From the NCBI GenBank assembly GCA_965203055.1, contig OZ241863.1:192001-256000 (forward strand): a stretch of 64,000 bases of DNA, written 5' to 3'. A program made the position numbers and the translations under genes. The notes under the pieces are model-generated. The model was not told the origin of the DNA. It did no database searches and worked only from the letters and a program-made list of their open reading frames with translations. This document shows, in pieces, positions 1-45,937 of this stretch; the stretch's first letter is position 1; each line of letters starts with the position of its first letter. This DNA comes from Spirochaetia bacterium. Its GTDB lineage: Bacteria > Spirochaetota > Spirochaetia > SZUA-6 > Bin103.

Positions 1-3000
1 CGGCCCCGCGCGGATAGGCGTAGGCCACCGGCTCCAGCCCCAGGTCCTCCATCACCTCGAAGCAGAGCCGGAACGAATCGTAGGCCTGAGCGTAGGTGAG
101 GGCGTCGTGATCGACGTGCCAGTGCCCGTGTCCGAAGAAGCCGAACCCGTGGGCGGTGAGCGACAGGCTGTGCTCGATCGCGGCGTCGGTCATCGGTCGG
201 TACAGGTCGCCGGGAACGACGTCCGGGACCAGCTCGGTCAAGTCGTGCTCGACCCAATCGGGCACCTGGTCGAGGTAACGCTGGGTGACTATCTCGTAGT
301 CCAGCACCAGCCCCTCATCCAGTACCAGCTTGTCGATCCGGTTGGGCGCCCTGGACACGCCGTCATAGGTGATGGAGATCGCCGCGGCATGGTCGTCGAA
401 CCACTTCGCGATGGTGAGTTCGGGAGGCGCGGGAGGCGGCCGGCTGGCGGTGAACTCCGCGGCCCACAGCGGCTCGCCGCCGGCGGCGGCCTGCTGGCCG
501 GTGCGGATGCCGGCGATTTCATAGGCGGGAAGCGGAACCACGGCCCGGCACCTTCCGTCGGCCGCCACGCCGTAGTCGCGGAAGTCGAACTCCAGATGGT
601 CGAAGCCCTCGGCCGCGGCCGGGCGGAGGCGCAGGAAGAACTGCGCCCGGACATCTTCGGCGGCGCACGGCTCCTTGAGGTAGACCAGCGTGTTTCCGCG
701 CCAGTGGACGGCGAAGTCGCGGCGCGCCCGCGGTTCGGTCAGCGTTACGTTCCAGAGTTGCCCGTCGCGCGGCGTAAACTGGCCGGTCGCAAGGTAGGCG
801 ATGCGGTAGTCGGGAAGATCGCGGATCGCCACGCAGCGACCGCGGTAGTGGAACCCGTGGCGGTCGAAGTCGAAGTCCAGGTTGTGAAACGCCCACGAGT
901 GTAAGGGGAGATCGTTGTGGTTGACCGGGTGGACGTGGAGGAAGAACCGCGCCGCGGCGTCAGCGTCCCCACACCCGCTCTTGAAGTAGATCAGCCGGTT
1001 GGCGGCGGCGTCCAGGTAGACCGTGAACCCGGATTGAACGCCGATGCCGGCATCCTGCAGCAGGGGGCGCATGAAGCCGTCCGCTTCCGGCGTCCCGTCC
1101 GGCGCCCCGCTTCGCAGGATGACGCCGTCGTCCACGGCGGCCGCGACCTCCATTCCCGGCGTTCGTATCAATGTCTCCAGGTCGTAGCCGTGCCGTCCCG
1201 AGTCCTGGTAGAACCAGACGACGTAGTGCTCCCGGCCGGCGGCTCCTTCTGCGGCAAGCCGAGCCCGCGTCGGGGAGAGCTCCCGCGGAAGCTGATGCGG
1301 ACCGGTATCCGCCGCCGTCGTCAGCAGGTAGAGCGCGGCGCCGTCGGTGCCGAGGAGCGGGGCCGCGGGCGTGCCGCCGGCGGCGTTCAGGTAGCGCATT
1401 ACGGCGGACTCCGACCAGCGCCGCGAGGCGTAGCCGCCGCCGTTCGCGAGCCACTGGTTCACGTGTTCGGTAGTCGCTCCCACCTGCGGCGCGAACCATG
1501 TCGAGAACAGCAGCGCGGCGGCGAGCCGCCGCCTCACCAGCCCGCGCCGCTCCGGCCGAAGGGCGGCGATCAACCGGTCCAGGACGACCGCTGCCGTAAC
1601 CAGCAACGGCGGGAACAGCGGCGCCAGGTGCCTGAGCTCCAGCGCGGCGTCGGCGGCGGGAAGGGCTAGCAGCAGATACAGCGCGTACGCCGCCGCGAAC
1701 ACGAGGGCCATGGCCGCGGCGTGAGGTGCCGGCAGGAGTTGGGAACGGGCCCGCGCGAGCAGGTACCCGGCGCCGGCCGCCGGTACCAGCAGAACCGCAA
1801 TCCGCAACCCGAGCACGGCCGCGCGGGGATATCCCGCGGCGCCGGCGCCCGCGATTCCCCGGGCCAGCCGGTCCAGCAGGCCGAGCCCGGCGCCTCCGAT
1901 GAGCCAGCGGACGAGTTCGCTGGTGGCGGTGTGGAGACTCGGCAGCGGCAGGAATCCGCCGGAACCGGCCGTTGCCAGTGACGCGCCGCTCACCACGACG
2001 CTGCTCACCAGCCATGCCCCGACCGGCGCCGCCGCTACGCCGCTCCAGACCGCGGCGTGCGCCAGCCGGCTCCGCACCGCGGCGGTTCTCGGCAGCAGCA
2101 GGAGCAGCGCCCCGCTGCCGATCAGCGCCACCCCGGCGTAGTGCGTCAGGCAAGCGGCGGCCGCCGCCGCCGCCGCCAGGAGGAGCGACGACCGCCGTCC
2201 GGTGCGCAGAAAGCGGTCCAGCGTGGCCAGCGCCGCGACGGCGAACAGGATGAACGGGATCTCGGGCCATGCGTACACCGCGACGTCGACCAGCGAGGTC
2301 GACAGGACGCAGGCGCAGGCCGCCCAGACGGCCAGCAGCCGGGATCGGACGCGGCTGCGCACCCATGTGGCCACGGCGTATACCGTCAGACCGAAGGCGG
2401 CGGCATTGACGTATCCCGCCGCCGTGACCGCGTCCGCTCCGAACAGGCCGGCGCCCGCCAGGGTCAGCGGGAAGAGCGGCGCCGCGACTCGATACGAGGC
2501 GCCCAGAAAGGTGACCAGCCCGTTGCCGTCCAGCAGGTTGCGCGCGACCGACACGTACAACGCCGAGTCGGCCGTCAGCCCCGGCCCGTAGGCGGCCTCC
2601 CGCAGCAGCACCAGCAGCGCGCCGACCCCGCCGAGCGCCGCCAGCAACATCGGCAACCCGTCCAGCCGGGCTGCCCGGCGAACGGCGCCGCTGCGCGCCA
2701 GAGCGCGCCGGGCGGCGTTCGCGGCGTTCGCGGCGCGGCTGCGCGCCAGAGCGCGCCGGGCGGCGTTCGCGGCGTTCGCGGCGCGCCGGGCCAAGCCGGT
2801 CTCCAGGACGGCCGCGAGCGCGGCGCACAGCGGCAGCGCGTACGGCACGAACAGGTATCGCCCGCGGCGGTAGATCAGGTCGTCGGGCACCAGCAGCTGC
2901 ACGGAGGCAAGCGCCATGAGCGCCGCGATCCACCCCATGGCGCGCAGCGGCGCCGGGCGGCCGCTGCGCGCCTGCAGGGCCGCGGCCCAGGCGGCCGCGG

Positions 3001-24548: not shown

Positions 24549-24845
24549 CTAGCCGAACAGCTTGTCGAAGTCGGTGCGCGCCCGCTTGGCGCGCCGCTGC
24601 TCCGCGTCCGCGGCCCCGTTCCCGCGCGGCCCGGCCCGCAGGCGGAAGTAATCGCAGAAGTTGGCGCGGTCCTTGTCCCGCACCGGTTCCGCAATCGTCT
24701 CCCGGCAGTCCCACTGCGCGCCCCGCTCATAGAACGCGCAGTTCAGGCACACCTTCAGCGGTCGGCTGCAGTTCGGGCACTCCGTCTCGCGAAAGATCGG
24801 CACGTCACGCGGCAGTTCGACGCCGCAGGAATGACACTGACCCAT
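24549..24845 (-). CDS. Small Cys-rich zinc-ribbon protein
   Basis: CHSC, CPNC, CLNC, C.E, NFCDYF. Confidence 0.75.
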   Translation of the reverse strand: MGQCHSCGVELPRDVPIFRETECPNCSRPLKVCLNCAFYERGAQWDCRETIAEPVRDKDRANFCDYFRLRAGPRGNGAADAEQRRAKRARTDFDKLFG

Positions 24846-24968
24846 GGCGCCATGGTAGCACGCCCGGCTGCCGCCGATGCCGGCGCATTTCCAAATGTAG
24901 GTACGCGTCTTGCCGCTTGGCGGCCAAGTCCATTTCCAGCGTAGGAGGACGTTCTCGGCGATCTTGAA

Positions 24969-26327
24969 TCACCGGTCTACCGGCGCCTGCCGATCCTCGC
25001 CGGGGCGGTCGAATCCGGCGCCGGCGTGGCGGTAGCGGTGATGGGCGGCGCACAGCAGGCGGAGATTGTTCGGCTCGGCGGCGCCGCCGCAGGCATACGG
25101 CACGACGTGATCGATCTGCAGCAGGTGTTGGGAGCCGCAGCGGCGCCCGCTGGTGCGGTCCACGTAGCGGCAGCGGCCGCGGTCGCGCCGCCAGACCTCG
25201 CGCTTGACCGCCGCCGGGATGGCGCGGCCGGCCACGCCGCCCGTCTTCGCTGCCGAAGTCCGGGTCCGCGGCGGCGCAGCCGGCTGCGCGCACGCCGCAG
25301 CCGGCCGGTCGAGGCGCCGCGTCTTCGGCGCCGAAGTGGTGTCGGTCGCCGGCTTCGCTGCCGAAGTGTCCGGGCGGTCAGCGGCTTCGTCTCCCGGCTG
25401 CGCCGGCGCCTGAGTCGATACCTTCGCCGCCGAAGGAGCGGCGCGGTCCGCGCCGGCCTCCTGCTTCGCTGCCGGGGCAGCGCCGCGAGCCGAGGCTGCC
25501 TGCGTCTTCGGCGCCGAAGTTTGCTCGGCTCCTTTGGCCGGCGCCGCGCGCCGCCCGCGCGGCGGCCGGGCCGGGTCGTGGCGGTCGAGCCCTTCCCGCA
25601 CCAGCCGCCCCATGAGCTGCCCCATCGTCAGATGCGGATCGACGTGGGACAGGAGGCCCTTGAGCCGCTCCAAGCCGCGCCGGCACTCATCGTCGATCAC
25701 CGCCTTGAGCTCCCAGCGCCCGCCGCCCAGGGGCCGCACCCGATCCGCCGGCGCCGCCAGCTCCGGGTCCACCTCGGCCAGCAAACTGCATCACCTCCCG
25801 GCTGCTCTTGCCGGACGCCTGCTCCACCAGCTCCCGCCGCGCCTCCGGGTCCAGCACCGGCGCCAGCGCCGGTTCCGCTCCGCCGGCCGCGGCGGCGCCG
25901 CGCCGTCCAGCGACTGAGCGGCAGCCCCGCACCCGGCCCCGCCCGGCGCGCTACGCGCCGCGCGCTCCTTCTTGCGCTCCTGCCGGTCGAAGGCGTTCTG
26001 CAACTGCGCGGCCGCGTTCAGCGTCATCGTGCCATTCTGCAGGCGCTCGCGCACGCCCTCGACGTCCGCGCAGAGCCGCATCGCCTTGATGCGCCGCCAC
26101 GCTGCGGCGTCGCTGTAGCCCAGCTCGCGCACTGCGTAATCGAACAGGCTGGAGAACCCGCGGCGCAGATACAGGCGGCGCTTCTGAATCTCGCGCAGGT
26201 GGTCGATCACGACCACTTCGAGATGGTGTTCGACGCGGGAAAGTTCCTTGGTCCGCTCCAGCAGGCGGTCGTCTGATAGGGCGGATACGGTAGTGGTGAC
26301 GGCCTCGTCGGAAGCACGTTTGTTCAT
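24969..26327 (-). pseudogene. HNH endonuclease, disrupted copy
   Basis: Near-identical to 42658-44004. A -1 indel (~25873) and a +1 indel (~25784) leave a TGA at 25791 in the shifted segment. Confidence 0.85.
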
Positions 26328-26333
26328 GACATA

Positions 26334-26362
26334 AGTATAATCATAGAAACTACTTGAGTCAA
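26334..26362 (-). promoter_or_regulatory. Sigma-70 promoter for a leaderless HNH transcript
   Basis: TTGACT-17 nt-TATACT-6 nt-ATG; palindrome ACTTGA-C-TCAAGT overlaps the -35. Confidence 0.75.
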
Positions 26363-26514
26363 GTTATTCGGGCCGGAAGATGCCATATGCGGGCGTGACT
26401 CGGCGGCGCATTTCCAAGCGGCTGGACGTTCCGTCAGATGCTACTGCCGAGAATGTCGCCGGCGTCGACAGGGCGCGATCTGCCGGGTACCGAGGGGCCG
26501 GCTTCGGCGCCGGC

Positions 26515-26626
26515 GGCATTGAGGGCGAGCAGGCGGGCGAGCACTTCGTCGCGGACTCCGGCGCGGTCCATGGCGGCGTGCAGCGGTACTCGTAGTACGC
26601 CTTTCCGAGGCTTCGAGGGCGGGATC
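26515..26626 (-). pseudogene. Fragments of a type IIG (Eco57I/MmeI-like) R-M gene C-terminus
   Basis: Segments translate as DPALEA.GKAYYEYR, LHAAMDRA and VRDEVLARLLALNA. Confidence 0.65.
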
Positions 26627-26698
26627 GGTACCAACAATTTGGAAGTGCGCCCCGGCGCTACGAGCAAAGGCCACCCGTGCTGCACGACGCGCAGGGGA

Positions 26699-28468
26699 TC
26701 ACTCGGTCACGGAGTCGCAGAAGACCATCTCCCAGCCGTGGAACACCACGATCAGGCCGATGAAGCGCACGCCCGGATACTGCCGCGCCAGCCGCTCGTC
26801 GGCCAGATAGCGCCCGAGCTGCTCCTGCGCCTCGCCGGCTGCCGCCGCCACCGCAGCCTGATCCAACGCCTCGGACCGCCGGCGGTACTTGAGCTCGATC
26901 AGGTAGCCGTAGCGCAAGTACGGAAAGGCTGCCACCAGCGGTTCCAGCGCGATGTCGGCGTGACCCTTGCCCAGCTCCGCCTCCGAGCGGAACAGGTAGT
27001 AGTCGGTCACGCTCAGGTAGGCTGCCAGAAATCCCTGGATTACCTTCTCCCCGGCGATGTAGTCCCGAATCCCGGTCTGCCGCGCGATCGCCTCGCTCAG
27101 GAACTCGAACACCGGCCGCCACTCCCCTTCGTCCGCCATCCGCGTCAGCAACTGCTCGAAGCGGAACAGGTTCACTGAAAAGACCTTCACGTCGCGGTAG
27201 CCGTCGCGCAGGAAGCCGTACATGAGCCGCCTCACGGTCTGGTTGGGGATCGCCAGCCGGGGCGTGCCGGACGGCACGCCGGGCGGCGCGCCGCGGATGC
27301 TCAGCAAGCCGAAGAAGTGCAGCAGCGAGAGGAAGTTCTCCGGTTCGGCGAGGCGCTCCAGCGGGAAGCCGGGCTGGATGCGGGCGGCTGCCTGCTCCTC
27401 GCCAATGACGTCCCGCAGCAGATCGAAGTTGCCGTTCAACTGCCGGCCGACCACCAGCAGGTGGCGCAGCTTGCCGTAGTCGATGCGCACGTTGGTGTCG
27501 ATCAGGTACTTGGGTACCCGCCGGTTGGGGATGGAGTGGTCCAGGTAGTAGAGCACCATGTCGGAGTTGTAGAGGTCGGTCGATGCCTCCTCGGAGAAGC
27601 GGTAGCCGTTGTACCACTCGCCCATGATGCCCAGCGCGGTGTCGGCGTCCTGGTTGAACACGCCCAGGTCGCGATACATCTCGACCAGATGCCGCACCTC
27701 GGCCGCGGTGAAGCCGACCATCTCGTTGAAGTCCGGGTGCAGGCTGATGTTCTTGCCGATGTTAAAGCCGCTGGTGACGTCGTCCATGGTGACCGGCGAG
27801 ACGCCGGTGATGAACAGCCGCTCCAGGCCGCCGCCGGCGCGGCCCGCGCCGCCCTTGAGGGCGGCGAAGAAGTTGCGGTAGAAGCCGCCGCCATGGGTGA
27901 ATGAGTGGTACGCCTCGGCGCCGCGGTAGGCCAGCACGGTGTTGGCGAAGTTGTCGTACTCGTCGATCAGCACGTACAGCGGGATGCCGTGGTCGCCCGC
28001 GTACCGGAACAGCTCGGAGAGCCTCGTGGCGATGGACGGCCGGGCGAGGATGTCGCGCACCGCCTCTGCGGGAAACAGGTCGGGATGCCGCCTCAACGTC
28101 CCCCGGAGTTCGATGTGGCAGTAGGTCTCGAATTCCCGCTCCAGGGTTTCGAGCTTGTCGTCGACCATCGAGAAGTCGAAGCGCAGGGTGACGTAGCGGC
28201 TGCGTTCCTCGGTCGGGCTGCGCCCGATGTCGGTGCCGCCGAAGGTGGCGTCGAACTCGCGGCCCCAGAAGCGGTCGTAGTAGAGCTCCAGCAGGGACAC
28301 CCACAGCGACTTGCCGAAGCGCCGCGGGCGGATCAGCAAGGCGTAGCGCTCCTGCTCCAGGCGGCGCAGGAAGCGGGTCTTGTCGACGTACAGCCACCCG
28401 TGCCGGCGGATGCGCATGATGTCGGCCTCGCCGTAGGGGATGCGCGGGTAGGCGGGGAGGGTAGTCAT
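26699..28468 (-). CDS. AAA-ATPase-like protein with C-terminal PD-(D/E)XK nuclease domain
   Basis: YVDKT, RPRRFGKS, LIDEYDN, FITGVSP, GHADI...IELKY. Confidence 0.92.
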   Translation of the reverse strand: MTTLPAYPRIPYGEADIMRIRRHGWLYVDKTRFLRRLEQERYALLIRPRRFGKSLWVSLLELYYDRFWGREFDATFGGTDIGRSPTEERSRYVTLRFDFSMVDDKLETLEREFETYCHIELRGTLRRHPDLFPAEAVRDILARPSIATRLSELFRYAGDHGIPLYVLIDEYDNFANTVLAYRGAEAYHSFTHGGGFYRNFFAALKGGAGRAGGGLERLFITGVSPVTMDDVTSGFNIGKNISLHPDFNEMVGFTAAEVRHLVEMYRDLGVFNQDADTALGIMGEWYNGYRFSEEASTDLYNSDMVLYYLDHSIPNRRVPKYLIDTNVRIDYGKLRHLLVVGRQLNGNFDLLRDVIGEEQAAARIQPGFPLERLAEPENFLSLLHFFGLLSIRGAPPGVPSGTPRLAIPNQTVRRLMYGFLRDGYRDVKVFSVNLFRFEQLLTRMADEGEWRPVFEFLSEAIARQTGIRDYIAGEKVIQGFLAAYLSVTDYYLFRSEAELGKGHADIALEPLVAAFPYLRYGYLIELKYRRRSEALDQAAVAAAAGEAQEQLGRYLADERLARQYPGVRFIGLIVVFHGWEMVFCDSVTE

Positions 28469-40167: not shown

Positions 40168-41415
40168 GTGTTATTGCGTTTCAGCGTCTCCAATCACCTT
40201 TCACTTCGAGATTCGCAGGAACTGCTGCTCACGACGTCATCACTGAAGGACAGGACCGAGGGCTTGATCGACTGCGCAGCCGCGCCGAGCGGATCGCTCT
40301 TGCCCGCCGTGGTAGTCTTCGGCGCCAACGCGTCGGGCAAGAGCAATCTCGTCCATGCGCTCAGGGCTATGCGGCGAATGGTCCTGTTCTCTCATACTCA
40401 CGGAGATGCGAGTGGCGGGGTGCCGCGCCATGCCTTCAGACTGGACGCCTCCTACTCCGACAAGCCAAGCCGCTTCGAGATTGATTTCGTCCATCAAGGC
40501 GTGCGCTATCACTATGGGTTCGAAGTGGACGACGCAGCATTCTTGTCGGAGTGGCTATACGCCATTCCCAAGTCACACCGCCGCCTCATGTTCGAACGTG
40601 AAGGTAACGATTTTCGCTTCGGGCGCGAGCTAAAGGGACGAAACAATACCATCGCAGAATTGACTAGATCGAATAGCTTGTATCTATCGGCCGCCACACA
40701 AAACAGCCATGAACAAATCTCAAGTCTGTACGACTACCTCAGAGATATGAGCTGTTATATGAACATTGGCACAAGTAATGAATATTGGGTGAGACACAAG
40801 GAAATAGATACCCGAGTGATTGAGTTTCTTGGAAGACTTGACACTGGAATATGTGATTACCGGCGTCGTGAAATTGATCTTACTGATGAATCAAGAGCGA
40901 CGCTTAGAGAAGTAATGGAGAGATTGACAAATGCTGCGGTAGACTTGACCTCGGGCAAGCAGGTCACCGTCGAACTTGCTCACCAGAGCAGAGACGGAGA
41001 GCCCGTCTACCTTGATTTTGGTATGGAAAGCTCGGGCACTCGGCGACTGCTGGTGATGTTGAGTCTAGCGTACCGTGCGCTCGACGCCGGAACGCCTCTA
41101 GTGATCGACGAACTCGACGTGAGTTTGCACACTCTGGCCGGGGCAGCGGTCCTGCAGTTGTTCAGCTCACCGGAGACGAATCCCAAAGGTGCGCAGCTTG
41201 TTGCAACGGTCCATGACACTAACCTGATGGGCTGGTCTGGACTGCGGCGCGATCAGATCTGGTTCACCGAAAAGGACGAGGACGGAGCGACGCTGCTCTA
41301 TCCGCTGACCGACATTCGGACGCGCCGGAGCGATGACCTGGAGAAGGGGTACCTGCAGGGCCGCTACGGCGCAGTACCCTTCGACGACCCGATTTCCGCA
41401 CTTGGCTCGAACTAG
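40168..41415 (+). CDS. AAA_21/ABC-type ATPase (RloA/AbiLi-like)
   Basis: GANASGKSN, ESSGT, IDELDVSLH, RRDQIWF.EK, YLQGRYGAVP. Confidence 0.9.
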   Translation: MLLRFSVSNHLSLRDSQELLLTTSSLKDRTEGLIDCAAAPSGSLLPAVVVFGANASGKSNLVHALRAMRRMVLFSHTHGDASGGVPRHAFRLDASYSDKPSRFEIDFVHQGVRYHYGFEVDDAAFLSEWLYAIPKSHRRLMFEREGNDFRFGRELKGRNNTIAELTRSNSLYLSAATQNSHEQISSLYDYLRDMSCYMNIGTSNEYWVRHKEIDTRVIEFLGRLDTGICDYRRREIDLTDESRATLREVMERLTNAAVDLTSGKQVTVELAHQSRDGEPVYLDFGMESSGTRRLLVMLSLAYRALDAGTPLVIDELDVSLHTLAGAAVLQLFSSPETNPKGAQLVATVHDTNLMGWSGLRRDQIWFTEKDEDGATLLYPLTDIRTRRSDDLEKGYLQGRYGAVPFDDPISALGSN

Positions 41416-42058
41416 ACGCAAACGGGGCGTTCCTTCCCTCGGTCGGCGCAAAGCTCAGCAAGGATCGAAATGGCGATTCGTGTTGTACTGTGAAGGCAGT
41501 AATACGGAATCATCCTATTTCAACGCCTTCAAGGAAACCTGTAAGAACACGCTTATCGGAGTGGAGGTTATTCCCGCAGCGGGGGTTCCCTACACGATTG
41601 CGAACAAAGCTGTGGAACGAGTCCGATCTCAGCGGCTCGGTGGCCGCAGAAACTCGTTCGAAAAGAACCAGGTTTGGGCGGTATTCGACCGCGATGAGCA
41701 TCCTCAATTTGAGGATGCTGTCGCGCTGTGCAGAAGTAACGGTGTCTGTGTCGGTCGTTCCAATCCATGTTTCGAGCTGTGGCTGATCCTGCATGAAAGG
41801 GATCACAATAGGTATGAGACACGTCACCGAATGCAGTCGATACTCAGTAATCTACGCCCCGAGTATGACAAGAGGCGGGGGAAGACTCCTGATTGCGAAG
41901 AAATGATCAGCCGAGTTGAGGATGCCGAACAGCGCGCCGAGCAACTATTGCTCCGCCGCCAGGAGGAGGGCAAGCCATACGGTAATCCCTCCACTACGGT
42001 CGGCCGGCTTACGCGCGCGATACGAACTGCTGACAATCGCGTGCGGGCACGGACCTGA
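41402..42058 (+). CDS. RloB family (Toprim-like) protein
   Basis: CEG..TE..YF, VFDRDEH, SNPCFELWLILH, NPST; TTG start is inferred. Confidence 0.88.
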   Translation: MARTRRKRGVPSLGRRKAQQGSKWRFVLYCEGSNTESSYFNAFKETCKNTLIGVEVIPAAGVPYTIANKAVERVRSQRLGGRRNSFEKNQVWAVFDRDEHPQFEDAVALCRSNGVCVGRSNPCFELWLILHERDHNRYETRHRMQSILSNLRPEYDKRRGKTPDCEEMISRVEDAEQRAEQLLLRRQEEGKPYGNPSTTVGRLTRAIRTADNRVRART

Positions 42059-42494: not shown

Positions 42495-42526
42495 AGCAGA
42501 TCTGCCGCGCCGTCCGCAAGATCAAC

Positions 42527-42562
42527 GTAGGTAAGTAGGTAGGTAGGTAGATAGGTAGGTAG
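42527..42562. repeat. (GTAG)9 imperfect tetranucleotide tandem repeat
   Basis: gtag gtaa gtag gtag gtag gtag atag gtag gtag, abutting the element's left end. Confidence 0.9.
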
Positions 42563-42657
42563 GGGGCGCATTTCCAAATGTAGGTACGCGTCAGGCCGCT
42601 TGGCGGCCAAGCTCCGTCCTAGTCCCAGTGTAAGATGACGTTTCTCGGCGATCTTGA

Positions 42658-44004
42658 TCACCGGTCTACCGGCACCTCACGATCCTCGCCGGGGCGCCCA
42701 AATCCGGCGCCGACGTGGCGGTAGCGGTGATGGGCGGCGCACAGCAGGCGGAGATTGTTCGGCTCGGCGGCGCCGCCGCGGGCATACGGCACCACGTGAT
42801 CGATCTGCAGCAGGTGTTGCGAGCCGCAGCGGCGCCCGCTGGTGCGGTCCACGTAGCGGCAGCGGCCCCGGTCGCGCCGCCACACCTCGCGCTTGACCGC
42901 CGCCGGGATGGCGCGGCCGGTCGCGCCGCCGGCCTTCGCTGGCGAAGTTTCGGTCCGCGCCGCCGTCGCAGCCGGCCGGCCGAGGCGCCGCGTCTTCGGC
43001 GCCGAAGTGGTGTCGGTCGCCGGCTTCGCTGCCGAACTGTCCGGGCGGTCAGCGGCTTGGTCTCCCGGCTGCGCCGGCGCCTGAGCCGATACCTTCGCCG
43101 CCGAAGGAGCGGCGCTGTCCGCGCCGGCCTCCTGCTTCGCTGCCGAAGCGGCGCCGCAAGCCGAGGCCGCCTGCGTCTTCGGCGCCGAAGTCTGCTCGGC
43201 GCCTTTGGCCGGCGCGGTGCGCCGCCCGCGCGGCGGCCGGGCCGGATCGTGACGGTCGAGCCCTTCCCGCACCAGCCGCCCCATGAGCTGCCCCATCGTC
43301 ATGCGTGGTTCGACGTGGGACAGGAGGCCCTTGATCTGCTCCAAGCCGCGCCGGCACTCATCGTCGATCACCGCCTTGAGTTCCCAGCGCCCGCCGCCCA
43401 GGGGCCGCACCCGATCAGCCGGCGCCGCCAGCTCCGGGTCCACCTCGGCCAGCAACTGCATCACCTCCCGGCTGCTCTTGCCGGACGCCCGCTCCACCAG
43501 CTCCCGCCGCGCCTCCGAGTCCAGCACCGGCTCCGGCGCCGACACCGGCTTCCGCTCCGCCGGCCGCGGCGGCGCCGAGCCCTCCTGCGACTGAGCGGCA
43601 GCCCCGAACCCGGTCCCGCCCGGCGCGCTACGCGCCGCCCGCTCCTTCTTGCGCTCCTGCCGGTCGAAGGCGTTCTGCAACTGCGCGGCCGCGTTCAGCG
43701 TCATCGTGCCACTCTGCAGGCGTTCGCGCACGCCCTCGACGTCAGCGCAGAGCCGCATCGCCTTGATGCGCCGCCACGCCGCGGCGTCGCTGTAACCCAG
43801 TTCGCGCACCGCGTAATCGAACAGGCTCGAGAACCCGCGGCGCAGATACAGGCGGCGCTTCTGAATCTCGCGCAGGTGGTCGATCACGACTACTTCAAGA
43901 TGGTGTTCGATGCCGGAAAGTTCCTTGGTCCGCTCCAGCAAGCGGTCGTCTGAGAGGGCGGATACGGTAGTGGTGACGGCCCCGTCTGGAGCATGTTTGT
44001 TCAT
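42658..44004 (-). CDS. HNH endonuclease with N-terminal helical domain and low-complexity linker
   Basis: VWRRDRGRC...C.S...LQIDHVVP...GG...NL.LLC..HH; N-terminal GFSSLFDYAVRELGYSD.AAWRR. Confidence 0.92.
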   Translation of the reverse strand: MNKHAPDGAVTTTVSALSDDRLLERTKELSGIEHHLEVVVIDHLREIQKRRLYLRRGFSSLFDYAVRELGYSDAAAWRRIKAMRLCADVEGVRERLQSGTMTLNAAAQLQNAFDRQERKKERAARSAPGGTGFGAAAQSQEGSAPPRPAERKPVSAPEPVLDSEARRELVERASGKSSREVMQLLAEVDPELAAPADRVRPLGGGRWELKAVIDDECRRGLEQIKGLLSHVEPRMTMGQLMGRLVREGLDRHDPARPPRGRRTAPAKGAEQTSAPKTQAASACGAASAAKQEAGADSAAPSAAKVSAQAPAQPGDQAADRPDSSAAKPATDTTSAPKTRRLGRPAATAARTETSPAKAGGATGRAIPAAVKREVWRRDRGRCRYVDRTSGRRCGSQHLLQIDHVVPYARGGAAEPNNLRLLCAAHHRYRHVGAGFGRPGEDREVPVDR

Positions 44005-44010
44005 GACATA

Positions 44011-44039
44011 AGTACAATCATGGAAACTACTTGAGTCAA
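44011..44039 (-). promoter_or_regulatory. Promoter of HNH copy 2, -10 variant TGTACT
   Basis: TTGACT-17 nt-TGTACT-6 nt-ATG, with the same -35 palindrome as copy 1. Confidence 0.6.
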
Positions 44040-44126
44040 GTTATTCGGCCCGGAAGATGCCACCTGAGGGCGTGACTCGGCGGGCATTCCAAGCGGCTGC
44101 CGAGACGAGAATGTCGCCGGCGTCGA

Positions 44127-44248
44127 GCGGCAGGGTTTCTTCTTACGGCCCCAGGCGGCCTCGTCGATGGAATGTCGCTCCAGCCGCAGGCGTCGAGCGT
44201 GGCGCGGTACTTGTAGTACGCCTGTCCGGCGGCTTCGAGGGCGGGATC
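44127..44248 (-). pseudogene. Fragments of a type IIG R-M gene C-terminus
   Basis: Segments translate as DPALEAAGQAYYKYRA, LDACGWSDIP and IDEAAWGRKKKPCR. Confidence 0.65.
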
Positions 44249-44306
44249 GGGTACAACAAATTGGAAGTGCGCCCGTAGGTACCTGGGAAGTAGCACTCTC
44301 TCTTGG

Positions 44307-44561
44307 TCATGGATCGTCAGTATAGCCGTCCGGCGCCTCTACCGGGCGGGCGAAGTCTGGCCGCTCCTGTTCTTCGTCGAAGGCGTACCAGCCGTCGCGG
44401 GCGAGGACGGCCAAGCTGCCGTCCGGCAGCCGCACCATCAAGTCCCACTGCTCCGGCGGCAGGGGGACCCTCTTGATATGCTCCTTCATCTCCTTGATGG
44501 TGAGGGGGCGGCGGCGGCAGGGGCGTCCGTGGTAGTCGCTGTCTACGTTCTCGTCAGCCAT
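44307..44561 (-). CDS. Small hypothetical protein
   Basis: 84-aa ORF from ATG 44561 with normal amino-acid composition. Confidence 0.45.
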   Translation of the reverse strand: MADENVDSDYHGRPCRRRPLTIKEMKEHIKRVPLPPEQWDLMVRLPDGSLAVLARDGWYAFDEEQERPDFARPVEAPDGYTDDP

Positions 44562-44599: not shown

Positions 44600-44681
44600 A
44601 GGTACAGCAGAGAGGTCGCGGCAGCTCGACCGCCGGCTCCTCCAGGAGGTGGAGCTCGTCCCAACCGGCGTCCGGGCTCAT
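44600..44681 (-). pseudogene. Possible 5' stub of hsdR
   Basis: ATG overlaps the hsdS stop; WDELHLLEEPAVEL.RPL..TW resembles HsdR N-termini. Confidence 0.4.
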
Positions 44682-45937
44682 GCGGCTTCCGTATTCGGAG
44701 TGACGCGAAGTTCACCATCGAGAAGTAGGGGCATAAGGCCGCGCTTGGCCTCGGTCAATTTCGCCACGCGCTCCTGATTGACTTCAATGACGTGGTCTAC
44801 GCTGGATAGTACATGGACAATCTGCTCCTGCTCAGCAAGTGGAGGAACCAGCACGCCACAGGTGAGAAACTTGCTCTTGCTGACGATTGGCACCGCGGTC
44901 ATTCCCGCAAGGCCAACAAGTGTGCCGGATGCGAAAGACAAAGCATAGTAGAGATATTCTGACAAAACAGCGTCACCGGTTATGACGCTGTTGATCTGCT
45001 GATTCGTGCAGCATCTTTCTACGGCTATACCGACCTTACCAATGGTCCCGATGCACGTTACCATGACTGACCCCGGTGGTATTTCTCGCACCTGAGCAAG
45101 ACCATCTTCGGAAACATGGCGGCCGGTAGTGCTGACTCTCTTGGCTTTTCCAAGATCGGTTGGCGTAACGAAGGGAATCTCGCCGTTCCAGAAGGTATGA
45201 TTGCTAGTGCTCGGCGTACTTCCGGTTACTACCTCTCCAATCTCCGCAATGGTTTTACGATCCCAGCCGTCGGGAATATCACCTGCTTCTATCTGCTTGA
45301 ACCGCGTATGTCGTCCCGGCAGGCCGCGTGTCAGCATTACCTGCATCAGGCCGCGCTTGACGATCTGCGCTTGGTCGATGACCGCCTGGGTCTTCTCGAT
45401 GGCGTCGTCTATTGACGAAAGGATCGCGGCAATCTTGCGCTGTTCCGGGATTGAGGGAAGGGGTATCCTTACACGATTGATGTCAGCCGCACGTAAGCCG
45501 AATCGCGTAATGCCGTTTGCATACATCTGAAACTGCCGCTTGGCACTTTTCTCGCTGAGGGCATAGTGAAGAAACCGTCCGTCCAGATTGGCTTTCAGTG
45601 GACGAAGAATCGCAAGATGATATCCGCATACCAAGTTCGGTACTTCATCACCTACTACCGCGGGCACTCCGATATCGTCAGGGGTCTCTGAATCCTTCGT
45701 GATGATTACATCACCGACTCTCAATCGACAATTCTGAATCTCCCGTTCAGTAGCTGTCGCCTCCATATAGTCCATGTCAGCACGAATGACGTTGTGATTG
45801 TATACGTCGGAGTAGTTGCAGAGCCTTACAGAGCGCTCTCCGTCTACGGTCTTCTTGTCAACGCCGCTGAGACGCAGATCGACGACGTCAGCCAACGCAG
45901 TCCAAGGCCAACTCTCATTATCCTGGTTACCTCTCAC
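44678..45937 (-). CDS. hsdS: Type I R-M specificity subunit (orphan)
   Basis: Two TRDs with PSIPEQRKIAAILSSID and PPLAEQEQI..LSSVD conserved helices; KRGLM..LL.G; lower GC. Confidence 0.93.
   Translation of the reverse strand: MRGNQDNESWPWTALADVVDLRLSGVDKKTVDGERSVRLCNYSDVYNHNVIRADMDYMEATATEREIQNCRLRVGDVIITKDSETPDDIGVPAVVGDEVPNLVCGYHLAILRPLKANLDGRFLHYALSEKSAKRQFQMYANGITRFGLRAADINRVRIPLPSIPEQRKIAAILSSIDDAIEKTQAVIDQAQIVKRGLMQVMLTRGLPGRHTRFKQIEAGDIPDGWDRKTIAEIGEVVTGSTPSTSNHTFWNGEIPFVTPTDLGKAKRVSTTGRHVSEDGLAQVREIPPGSVMVTCIGTIGKVGIAVERCCTNQQINSVITGDAVLSEYLYYALSFASGTLVGLAGMTAVPIVSKSKFLTCGVLVPPLAEQEQIVHVLSSVDHVIEVNQERVAKLTEAKRGLMPLLLDGELRVTPNTEAA

Follow-up and report, generated by a model that had tools for sequence, protein, structure and literature searches.

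Within the window, as the whole 64,000-nt stretch of DNA analysed is called here, two homologous units of about 1.7 kb lie in unrelated contexts (Table 1). When both units were aligned together with their flanks, homology started at GGCGCATTTCCAAATGTAGGTAC and stopped at ...TTGGAAGTGCGCCC, with unrelated flanking sequence on the outside, so that the sharp boundaries at inverted repeats described in the initial annotation are borne out. The 14-nt core of the repeat, GGGCGCAYTTCCAA, occurs five times in the window with up to two mismatches, compared to a mean of 1.02 occurrences in the shuffled window (0 of 100 shuffles reached five). Read by eye and without gaps, 18 of the 24 positions agree between the two arms of copy 2, and 13 of the outermost 14. 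The source lineage is uncultured and labelled as Spirochaetia, and it was found in sponge and marine metagenome runs.

Table 1. Features of the two HNH units in the window and predicted domains of the HNH protein P0001. IRL and IRR, left and right terminal inverted repeat (TIR); IS, insertion sequence.
Feature	Position	Strand	Remarks
Copy 1, whole unit	24881-26652		frameshifted pseudogene
Copy 1, IRL	24881..24904	+	first base C, not G
Copy 1, HNH pseudogene	24969..26327	-	frame broken between 25784 and 25791
Copy 1, internal terminal-repeat relic	26404..26417	+	CGGCGCATTTCCAA; core intact
Copy 1, DrmMI-like methyltransferase 3' remnant	26418..26628	-	nucleotide matches to long form
Copy 1, IRR	26629..26652	-	
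(GTAGG)n-like microsatellite	42527..42563		abuts left end of copy 2
Copy 2, putative left target-site duplication	42555-42563		GTAGGTAGG, last 9 nt of the microsatellite
Copy 2, whole unit	42564-44274		intact HNH ORF
Copy 2, IRL	42564..42587	+	type of the transposase-distal (right) end of the ISKra4-family IS
Copy 2, probable relic of IS transposase gene 3' end	42588..42611	-	..QAA-stop as in the IS, read from the sequence
Copy 2, HNH gene	42658..44004	-	448 aa, intact; only long ORF in the unit that is gene-like
Copy 2, putative HNH promoter region	44010..44045	-	-10-like box and -35 TTGACT
Copy 2, degenerate third terminal-repeat relic, internal	about 44078..44096	+	orientation as IRL
Copy 2, DrmMI-like (DISARM class 1 / type IIG-like) methyltransferase 3' remnant	44097..44250	-	deleted
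Copy 2, IRR	44251..44274	-	type of the transposase-proximal (left) end of the IS
Copy 2, putative right target-site duplication	44275..44283		GTAGGTACC
Core GGGCGCAYTTCCAA	24881, 26404, 26639-26652, 42564, 44261-44274	+, +, -, +, -	
P0001, predicted ParB/KorB-like helical DNA-binding domain	residues ~19-126 and 163-188		
P0001, predicted ribbon-helix-helix-like module	residues ~197-252		
P0001, disordered Ala/Pro/Ser repeat linker	residues ~263-365		

A protein of about 450 aa with an HNH domain was originally given as the only gene of the unit. This holds for copy 2 and not for copy 1, a pseudogene whose ORF consists of two pieces (24969..25784 and 25791..26327) with a 1-nt insertion and further indels. 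Family searches retrieved only HNH and a weak IscB match confined to the HNH domain, in agreement with the earlier observation that no DDE, HUH or recombinase motif is visible in the unit. The sole Pfam family matched by P0001 is PF01844 (HNH; 30.8 bits with a cut-off of 21.4; residues 392-429). The HNH motif is intact, its C-terminal domain lies at 366-433, and D402, H403, N417, H425, C382, C393 and C422 are invariant or almost so among 22 relatives. The best structural match of this domain is the HNH domain of IscB (Z 7.4, 59 residues, rmsd 2.2), and NF040563 (IscB) scores 24.4 bits versus a cut-off of 175, at residues 368-430 only. A split RuvC around the HNH domain, as in IscB, is absent from P0001, an Rfam scan of the unit gave no family at E up to 1, omega-RNA/HEARO included, and PADLOC reported only an 18-bit match to a type II REase for the HNH protein.

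The N-terminal part of P0001 has no match in the PDB by sequence or by Foldseek. VIA-align gave middling matches for it, ParB/KorB-like (Z 5-6.6) and ribbon-helix-helix-like (Z 5-5.3), which are treated as leads. DUF222 (PF02720) is not matched by P0001 at E up to 1; it is detected in 7 of 22 aligned diverse relatives (best E 2e-4) and in 21% of the members of one Atlas cluster. The DUF222-like HNH family as a whole amounts to 17,788 clusters at 50% identity (E up to 1e-3). The putative promoter region is conserved in the units of relatives, with the -35 box placed inside the palindrome CTTGACTCAAG (44030-44040). Since the start codon is located about 7 nt past the -10 box, the mRNA is likely leaderless. 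Most likely, the HNH protein is a sequence-specific DNA-binding nuclease or nickase.

The right arm of both copies holds a remnant of a methylase that matches DrmMI with 1306.5 bits. In copy 2 the remnant shows nucleotide matches to the long form, and 13 of 17 aa are shared with residues 1180-1196 of the 1305-aa protein; in copy 1, VRDEVLARLLALN is identical to residues 1276-1288 (13/13). Beside the HNH gene of TIR-type units, three long forms are present in the genome, with stumps elsewhere, and the methylase was found beside HNH in none of the loci searched in other relatives. The DrmMI-like methylase is also present as eight gene-sized paralogs. A two-gene system of methyltransferase and HNH nuclease was considered and rejected, since the methylase adjoins HNH in TIR-type units only.

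The element was first described as present twice, which is an understatement: 62 loci similar to the unit were identified in the 4.56-Mb genome, and in 38 of them the alignment extends over at least 1 kb. The left end is reached by 34 of these 62 loci, the right end by 20 and both ends by 15. Calculated from the locus list, HNH units occupy about 1.3% of the 4.6-Mb genome, and their insertion contexts are unrelated to each other. The 1.7-kb HNH unit is a real mobile element with many copies.

The ends of the unit had not been recognised as those of any IS family. However, the same repeats are found end for end on a 1,523-bp ISKra4-family IS outside the window (e.g. G000 273723-275245), of which eight full copies, 98.2-100% identical, and one internally deleted copy are present. 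Its 467-aa transposase, with an open ORF in all eight, scores 214.6 bits against NCBIfam NF033572 (ISKra4 family; cut-off 205), so the proposed search for transposase genes with the same TIRs yielded eight intact copies in the same genome. The IS starts with GGGCGCACTTCCAATTTGTAGGTAGG and ends in the complement of GGGCGCACTTCCAAAACGTAGGTAGCGTCAGGC, its arms of 25 nt being 88% complementary. When aligned by eye, the IRR consensus of the HNH units, GGGCGCACTTCCAATTTGTTGGTACC, shares 23 of its first 24 positions with the first IS end. The IRL consensus, GGGCGCATTTCCAAAATGTAGGTAAGCGTCAGGC, agrees with the second IS end in about 35 out of 40, a stretch which takes in the stop codon region of the transposase; the corresponding relic in copy 2 overlaps a hairpin, GGCCGC-TTGG-CGGCC. 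At a few positions, the TIRs of the units differ from those of the IS. A tblastn search with the IS transposase gave no match in the HNH units. The unit is thus not an autonomous ISKra4 element, the ISKra4-type DDE transposase being located in the separate 1,523-bp IS. Part of what the initial annotation had listed as speaking against its own proposal is indeed observed, as the terminal repeat is an IS end which also occurs without HNH genes.

Target duplications were scored at curated ends (score out of 8, threshold of at least 7). All nine IS copies carry an 8-9-bp duplication of at least 7/8, eight of which are perfect, compared to 0 of 72 mismatched IS flank pairs. For the HNH units, 9 of 19 end pairs reach the threshold, with four perfect cases (e.g. 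CAACGAATG, CCCGGCGGC and TGCGTAGGC), against 3 of 342 in the control. The suggested check for target-site duplications therefore turned out positive, with a length of 8-9 bp for HNH units and IS alike and far above controls. The other ten end pairs are without a clear duplication, including copy 1 of the window, where it is unrecognisable (5/8). The GTAGG reported on both sides of copy 2 stands in so far as the flanks GTAGGTAGG and GTAGGTACC are identical at 7 of 9 positions (score 7/8), but since the left one is made up of the last nucleotides of a (GTAGG)n-like microsatellite, the duplication of copy 2 carries less weight as evidence. A staggered target duplication of 8-9 bp is the signature of DDE transposition and is not known to result from HNH cleavage.

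Based on these results, the unit is probably derived from an ISKra4-family (Mutator-superfamily DDE) IS, as a non-autonomous element of the mobile-insertion-cassette type that carries cargo and is mobilised in trans. The earlier option of a non-autonomous transposon carrying a nuclease gains support from the IS-type ends, the 8-9-bp duplications and the eight transposase genes. The IS transposase, supplied in trans, would bind the ends of the unit and insert it, making the 8-9-bp target duplication. The transposase gene would have been replaced, in the same orientation, by a promoter-bearing DUF222-like HNH gene together with the 3' stump of the DrmMI-like methylase and the decayed third IS end. 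The identical ends and target-duplication length, the stop-region relic, the intact transposase genes and the many dispersed copies with sharp ends are observed; the mobilisation in trans and the order of events by which the cargo was built are inferred. The HNH protein is most likely cargo and not a transposase.

Coding identity between HNH units is 92-96%, with a maximum of 96.1%; the amplification is old and most copies are now decaying. Of 43 HNH ORF pieces, 25 are short of full length and 18 are full length. Neutral decay is estimated to leave roughly this share (18/43) at full length when divergence is about 3%, so that selection keeping the copies intact in place is unsupported. In the 18 full-length copies, omega is 0.17-0.36 in the folded domains versus 0.98 in the linker. 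For changes private to a single copy, corrected with a mutation spectrum taken from four-fold sites, the values are 0.22-0.33 versus 0.72, and the pattern is similar in intact and broken copies. The folded domains of the HNH protein thus show a signature of purifying selection, and the cargo looks unlike a freely decaying passenger. A composition artefact behind the omega signal was rejected, as the signal persists after the four-fold-site correction.

In the relatives G011, G010 and G003, genes of this HNH family occur in multiple copies that lack the IS-type ends. The boundaries of these TIR-less units are ragged or at the level of the promoter, the shared unit being approximately promoter plus ORF. 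Around them, a search for inverted repeats gave GC-rich noise only, and no target duplications were seen. G011, the closest relative genome, also contains TIR-type units, and no match to the present IS transposase was found in it. This opens the tentative and rather doubtful possibility that the ~1.45-kb promoter and DUF222-like HNH ORF form a selfish gene which spreads through this spirochaete family in an HNH-dependent manner without terminal repeats, one lineage of which colonised an ISKra4 element, replaced its transposase and now travels with the parental IS as the parasite of another parasite. Such a scenario would be consistent with the purifying selection seen in dozens of nuclease copies and with the multicopy units of G010, G003 and G011 that have no TIRs.

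Sequences flanking copy 1 and the entire region of copy 2 were sought in 5 and 20 relatives, where left and right flanks never occur together; for this reason, and with synteny being poor, no orthologous site could be scored as empty or occupied. The gene bordering copy 1 on the right is multicopy as well. Occupation of the right junction of copy 2 was seen in three of four public runs, which come from three studies, and at the left junction the coverage of the public runs stops at 42520. No contig joining 42563 to 44275 was found in the four runs, whose short-read contigs all break in the repeat and are therefore neutral with regard to empty alleles. Neither an HNH-free allele, as would be expected beside a homing endonuclease gene, nor a polymorphic insertion or a transposition event was seen in these relatives and runs.

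Since the units (92-96%) predate the IS burst (at least 98.2%), they may never have been moved by the IS copies of today. It is improbable, nevertheless, that the units are immobile fossils, amplified by an extinct ancestral IS with which the present IS shares only the ancestry of its ends. The maximum of 96.1% between unit CDS pairs versus at least 98.2% between IS copies, the 25 of 43 incomplete ORF pieces, the junction fixed in three studies and the departure of the unit TIRs from the IS TIRs would all fit this explanation. However, the end differences are few and 15 loci retain both ends, and it is a variant of the trans-mobilised IS derivative proposed above, not a true alternative.

The initial annotation also raised the option that the unit is mobilised by its own HNH protein. 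If this protein acted as an HNH-based transposase or homing nuclease, with the likeness to the IS ends being secondary, the purifying selection seen between copies in the HNH domains, the dispersed TIR-less copies of the gene family in relatives and the TIR-type units of G011, a genome with no matching transposase, would be accounted for, as would the fold prediction, which tentatively puts two DNA-binding modules ahead of the nuclease. For the TIR-bounded unit this option is not supported and is very improbable, since both ends match the corresponding IS ends, stop-region relic included, unit and IS share a staggered target duplication of 8-9 bp, and the TIR-less units of relatives are ragged or promoter-level with no target duplications seen. 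Segmental duplication or gene conversion of the gene family instead of transposition, as might be suggested by the promoter-plus-ORF extent of the shared unit in relatives and the eight gene-sized methylase paralogs, can practically be dismissed, given that TIR-type units lie in unrelated contexts with their homology halting precisely at the inverted repeats, and that short direct target duplications flank them far above controls.

As a trans-mobilised derivative of an IS, the unit can be compared to several known systems. MIC231 of Bacillus cereus is an example of a mobile insertion cassette (MIC). Transposase-less, TIR-bounded cassettes with passenger genes are treated as an established category, the MICs, in PMC4337579. 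Like MICs, the HNH unit has TIRs of the resident-IS type and a target duplication of the parental length, carries one or more passenger genes and encodes no transposase itself. It stands apart in that its parent is an ISKra4-family IS and its passenger is a DUF222-like HNH gene, with a methylase stump beside it, that bears a signature of purifying selection; with 38 loci aligned over 1 kb or more, it is also unusually abundant for a cassette of 1.7 kb. No description of an HNH-carrying ISKra4 cassette was found in the titles and abstracts of the DUF222-HNH literature and part of the ISKra4 literature. Most likely, the unit is a hitchhiker on ordinary IS ends that was moved by the IS transposase, not a new mode of transposition. 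It is a clean case of a resident IS amplifying a cargo gene to dozens of copies, and it cautions against proposing a new mechanism for ‘transposase-less TIR elements’ that have yet to be compared with the rest of their genome.

According to Guerillot et al. (2014, PMC3942029), the ISKra4 group consists of prokaryotic Mutator-like (p-MULT 4) transposons. The same paper describes elements of this group from several bacterial phyla, four of which carry extra genes of unknown function, and an insertion preference upstream of sigma-A promoters. Like these elements, the partner IS has TIRs and 8-9-bp direct repeats, and it scores above the cut-off of the NCBIfam model for ISKra4, whereas the HNH unit itself is without a transposase.

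For the multicopy behaviour of DUF222-like HNH genes, known since the mycobacterial REP13E12, we know of no accepted mechanism. The REP13E12 or ‘13E12 repeat’ DUF222-HNH genes of Mycobacterium tuberculosis are attributed to Gordon et al. (1999) in PMC10589994. As in this ~1.4-kb repeat, the sole gene of the HNH unit encodes a helical N-domain and a C-terminal HNH domain and is multicopy with an unexplained mode of spread. Unlike REP13E12, P0001 has no DUF222 match, the host is a Spirochaetia-labelled MAG lineage and not an actinobacterium, and one lineage of the gene is packaged between IS ends. With TIR-packaged and TIR-less lineages of one gene occurring side by side here and in the relatives, the part of the nuclease in its own spread becomes testable. 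The HNH unit also resembles IscB/HEARO (IS200/IS605) in that a nuclease of about 450 aa with an HNH domain is the non-transposase gene of a small mobile element, but it differs in being without RuvC and without an omega-RNA match, and in ending in TIRs with a target duplication instead of IS200/605-type hairpins.

Alignment of window 42500-44330 with 24820-26710 confirmed the two homologous HNH units bounded by inverted repeats that were described in the initial annotation. Homology starts abruptly at GGCGCATTTCCAAATGTAGGTAC and stops at ...TTGGAAGTGCGCCC, giving sharp edges, and the flanks of the two copies are unrelated. The 14-nt core GGGCGCAYTTCCAA has five matches in the window (up to 2 mismatches), four of which are exactly the four unit ends; the fifth lies inside copy 1. 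Shuffled sequence yields a mean of 1.02, and 0 of 100 shuffles reach five. Copy 2 carries an open frame of 448 aa with HNH as its only Pfam family (30.8 bits, cut-off 21.4), and the copy 1 gene is a pseudogene, broken by indels into two frames.

The unit had been reported as present twice. BLASTN of the host genome (G000, a single contig, C1, of 4,557,819 bp with 68.75% G+C) returns 114 pieces at 62 loci, with at least 1 kb aligned at 38 of them; the left end is reached at 34, the right end at 20 and both at 15. Genome-wide, the units have sharp ends and lie in unrelated contexts. Of the 43 HNH-like ORF pieces with 250 aa or more, 18 span the full protein length. Coding identity among copies is 92-96% (median 94.0%, maximum 96.1%), with one divergent copy, about 75% identical to the others, outside this range; the identities are read as pointing to a single old amplification.

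The ends, previously assigned to no known IS family, correspond to those of a 1,523-bp ISKra4-family insertion sequence (IS) in the same genome. A 13-nt core (at most 1 error) occurs at 126 places, including pairs exactly 1,523 bp apart. The example copy in the table has 25-nt arms, 88% complementary, and one 467-aa ORF, which passes NCBIfam NF033572 (ISKra4-family transposase) with 214.6 bits at a cut-off of 205. Eight full copies (98.2-100% identical, the transposase frame being open in 8/8) and one internally deleted copy were found, none of them inside the window. The IS left end (GGGCGCACTTCCAATTTGTAGGTAGG...) is the counterpart of the right terminal inverted repeat of the unit (IRR, GGGCGCACTTCCAATTTGTTGGTACC...), and the IS right end (GGGCGCACTTCCAAAACGTAGGTAGCGTCAGGC...) that of the left one (IRL, GGGCGCATTTCCAAAATGTAGGTAAGCGTCAGGC...). 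The transposase stop codon is covered by GCGTCAGGC, common to both, where by our reading the coding strand would give ..Q-A-A-stop in IS and unit alike, and the HNH gene is oriented as the transposase gene would run. The HNH unit is probably derived from an ISKra4-family IS in the manner of a mobile insertion cassette, and its movement was most likely in trans and mostly in the distant past. Of the two readings offered initially, a non-autonomous transposon carrying a nuclease or an element mobilised by its own HNH protein, the first is supported.

Target duplications were scored at curated ends, each allowed to shift by one base, using mismatched flank pairs as control. At least 7 of the 8 flanking bases are repeated in 9/9 IS copies (perfect in 8; control 0/72) and in 9/19 HNH units with both ends (perfect in 4; control 3/342). 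No recognisable duplication is present at the other 10 of these 19 units, copy 1 included, which fits with their age, yet leaves the evidence incomplete at this point. GTAGGTAGG and GTAGGTACC border copy 2 on the left and right, the left sequence being the end of a (GTAGG)n-like microsatellite. One IS copy sits inside an HNH unit with an 8-bp duplication, TTCCGGGC; the IS was therefore active after the spread of the units. A further repeat family opens with the 14-nt terminal core seen in the units (GGGCGCACTTCCAAAAAAGTGTGTTGGTGAC...) and adjoins a ~0.9-kb repeat that occurs at some 15 places (70-78% identity); this family, too, may be a non-autonomous relative of the IS.

Coordinates of the features discussed
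Feature	Sequence	Position	Strand	Remark
HNH ORF of copy 2	Window	42658..44004	-	448 aa
Internal core match	Window	26404-26417		In copy 1
RloB-like gene	Window	41333-42058	+	Beside copy 2
Type I HsdS gene	Window	44678-45937	-	Beside copy 2
AAA-ATPase_like/PDDEXK_9 gene	Window	26699-28468	-	589 aa, beside copy 1
Tandem repeats at IRL	Window	42527-42563		Left flank of copy 2
Tandem repeats at IRL	G000:C1	about 328555-328573; 4152292-4152310
IS, example copy	G000:C1	273723-275245
IS, nested copy	G000:C1	623721-625243		In HNH unit 626146-623667
GGGCGCACTTCCAAAAAAGTGTGTTGGTGAC-type repeats	G000:C1	1281227; 1727358; 4102300		Outside window
Long forms of the element	G000:C1	2835451-2838909; 1396538-1405391; 1764255-1769429
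DrmMI-like paralogs 1-4	G000:C1	980275-984290; 1398124-1405286; 1765641-1769429; 2067108-2071034		Outside window
DrmMI-like paralogs 5-8	G000:C1	2489854-2493213; 2594730-2598662; 2837037-2838805; 4383968-4387885		Outside window

The HNH protein has 1,830 relatives at E ≤1e-3 among 8,000 candidates scored, and its family comprises 17,788 50%-identity clusters at E ≤1e-3 and 875 at E ≤1e-30. Across 22 diverse aligned members, conservation covers an N-terminal helical region, a middle region and the HNH motif, but not the linker; DUF222 hits occur in 7 members of this set and not in the window protein. In the AlphaFold2 model (mean pLDDT 76.4) the linker (about 269-361) is disordered, and Foldseek gave weak matches to HNH domains alone. 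The VIA-align matches all stay below the tool's confidence level: residues 350-437 match IscB, McrA and phage HNH (Z 6-7.4), residues 31-191 match ParB/KorB/Spo0J DNA-binding domains, with Z 5.3-6.6 and rmsd 3.0-3.4 over about 98 aligned residues, and residues 206-255 match ribbon-helix-helix proteins (Z 5-5.3). The protein is taken to be a predicted DNA-binding nuclease or nickase, and the conserved palindrome CTTGACTCAAG, overlapping the -35 box of its gene, is a candidate operator.

If a passenger had been decaying since one burst, its omega would be expected to come close to 1 everywhere. Among 18 full-length copies, pairwise omega is 0.17 for the N-domain, 0.36 for the middle region, 0.35 for the HNH domain and 0.98 for the linker; private-change omega, corrected by the mutation spectrum from four-fold sites, is respectively 0.22, 0.31, 0.33 and 0.72. 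The pattern is similar in intact and broken copies. The low values in the domains are the principal finding left unexplained by the hitchhiker reading.

Three long forms of the element carry a large methylase gene between IRR and the HNH promoter, found intact elsewhere as a 1305-aa ORF with Eco57I/MmeI methylase and TRD domains and a full-length match to PADLOC DrmMI (DISARM class 1 methylase, 1306.5 bits). This gene has eight paralogs in the genome (about 84-95% DNA identity), only 3 of them linked to HNH units. Their homology is confined to the gene, ending at the stop codon on one side and, on the other, no more than about 10-35 nt from the start codon. In the 1.7-kb units the methylase is reduced to 3'-end stumps, matching 13/13 at residues 1276-1288 in copy 1 and 13/17 at residues 1180-1196 in copy 2. 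The internal core copy lies directly after the methylase stop and is read as a decayed third IS end. Plausibly, a methylase-carrying ISKra4-type element would first have ended up upstream of the HNH promoter; with an IS end located downstream of HNH, the outer ends would then have been able to move the whole, and deletions would have removed most of the methylase.

Within the family, unit DNA is matched in 12/12 other genomes; among genomes from other families of the order the figure is 1/8. Relative G011 has four places with TIR-type units, each with an internal relic and one outer end, and nine further places with sister-lineage HNH units without the core near the gene. In these nine, the shared part begins exactly at the -35 TTGACT and runs to the end of the HNH domain or slightly past it, with weaker upstream similarity over at most 30-50 nt within subgroups. 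In G010 and G003 the units lack the ends too, and their upstream borders are ragged. A search for the IS transposase in G011 found none, and G010 has a 65% identical counterpart; no methylase or transposase adjoining HNH was found in the relatives' loci. The HNH gene is therefore multicopy with or without IS ends, one lineage alone being packaged. Interest remains in the cargo, whose DUF222-like HNH gene family keeps its nuclease under selection and has many dispersed copies, also where surrounding IS ends are lacking.

Metagenome runs from sponge and marine sources contain the region. Runs of three studies include the right junction of copy 2, and no contig bridges copy 2 in the four runs examined, all short-read contigs. 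In summed depth the HNH gene exceeds the flanks by a factor of tens to hundreds, in line with its being a repeat.

On one side of copy 2 lie a cupin gene and an RloB-like gene, and on the other a type I HsdS gene; with the RloB-like and HsdS genes beside it, the copy sits in a defence-gene neighbourhood. The AAA-ATPase_like/PDDEXK_9 gene beside copy 1 belongs to a large multicopy family: each of 5 relatives has dozens of matches, at 72-88% DNA identity. Short tandem repeats, (GTAGG)n, (ACAGG)n and (CAGT)n, adjoin the IRL of some units (3 of 34 left ends listed), and slippage-like expansions also occur inside some IRLs, e.g. GTAGTAGTAGGTAGGTAAG.
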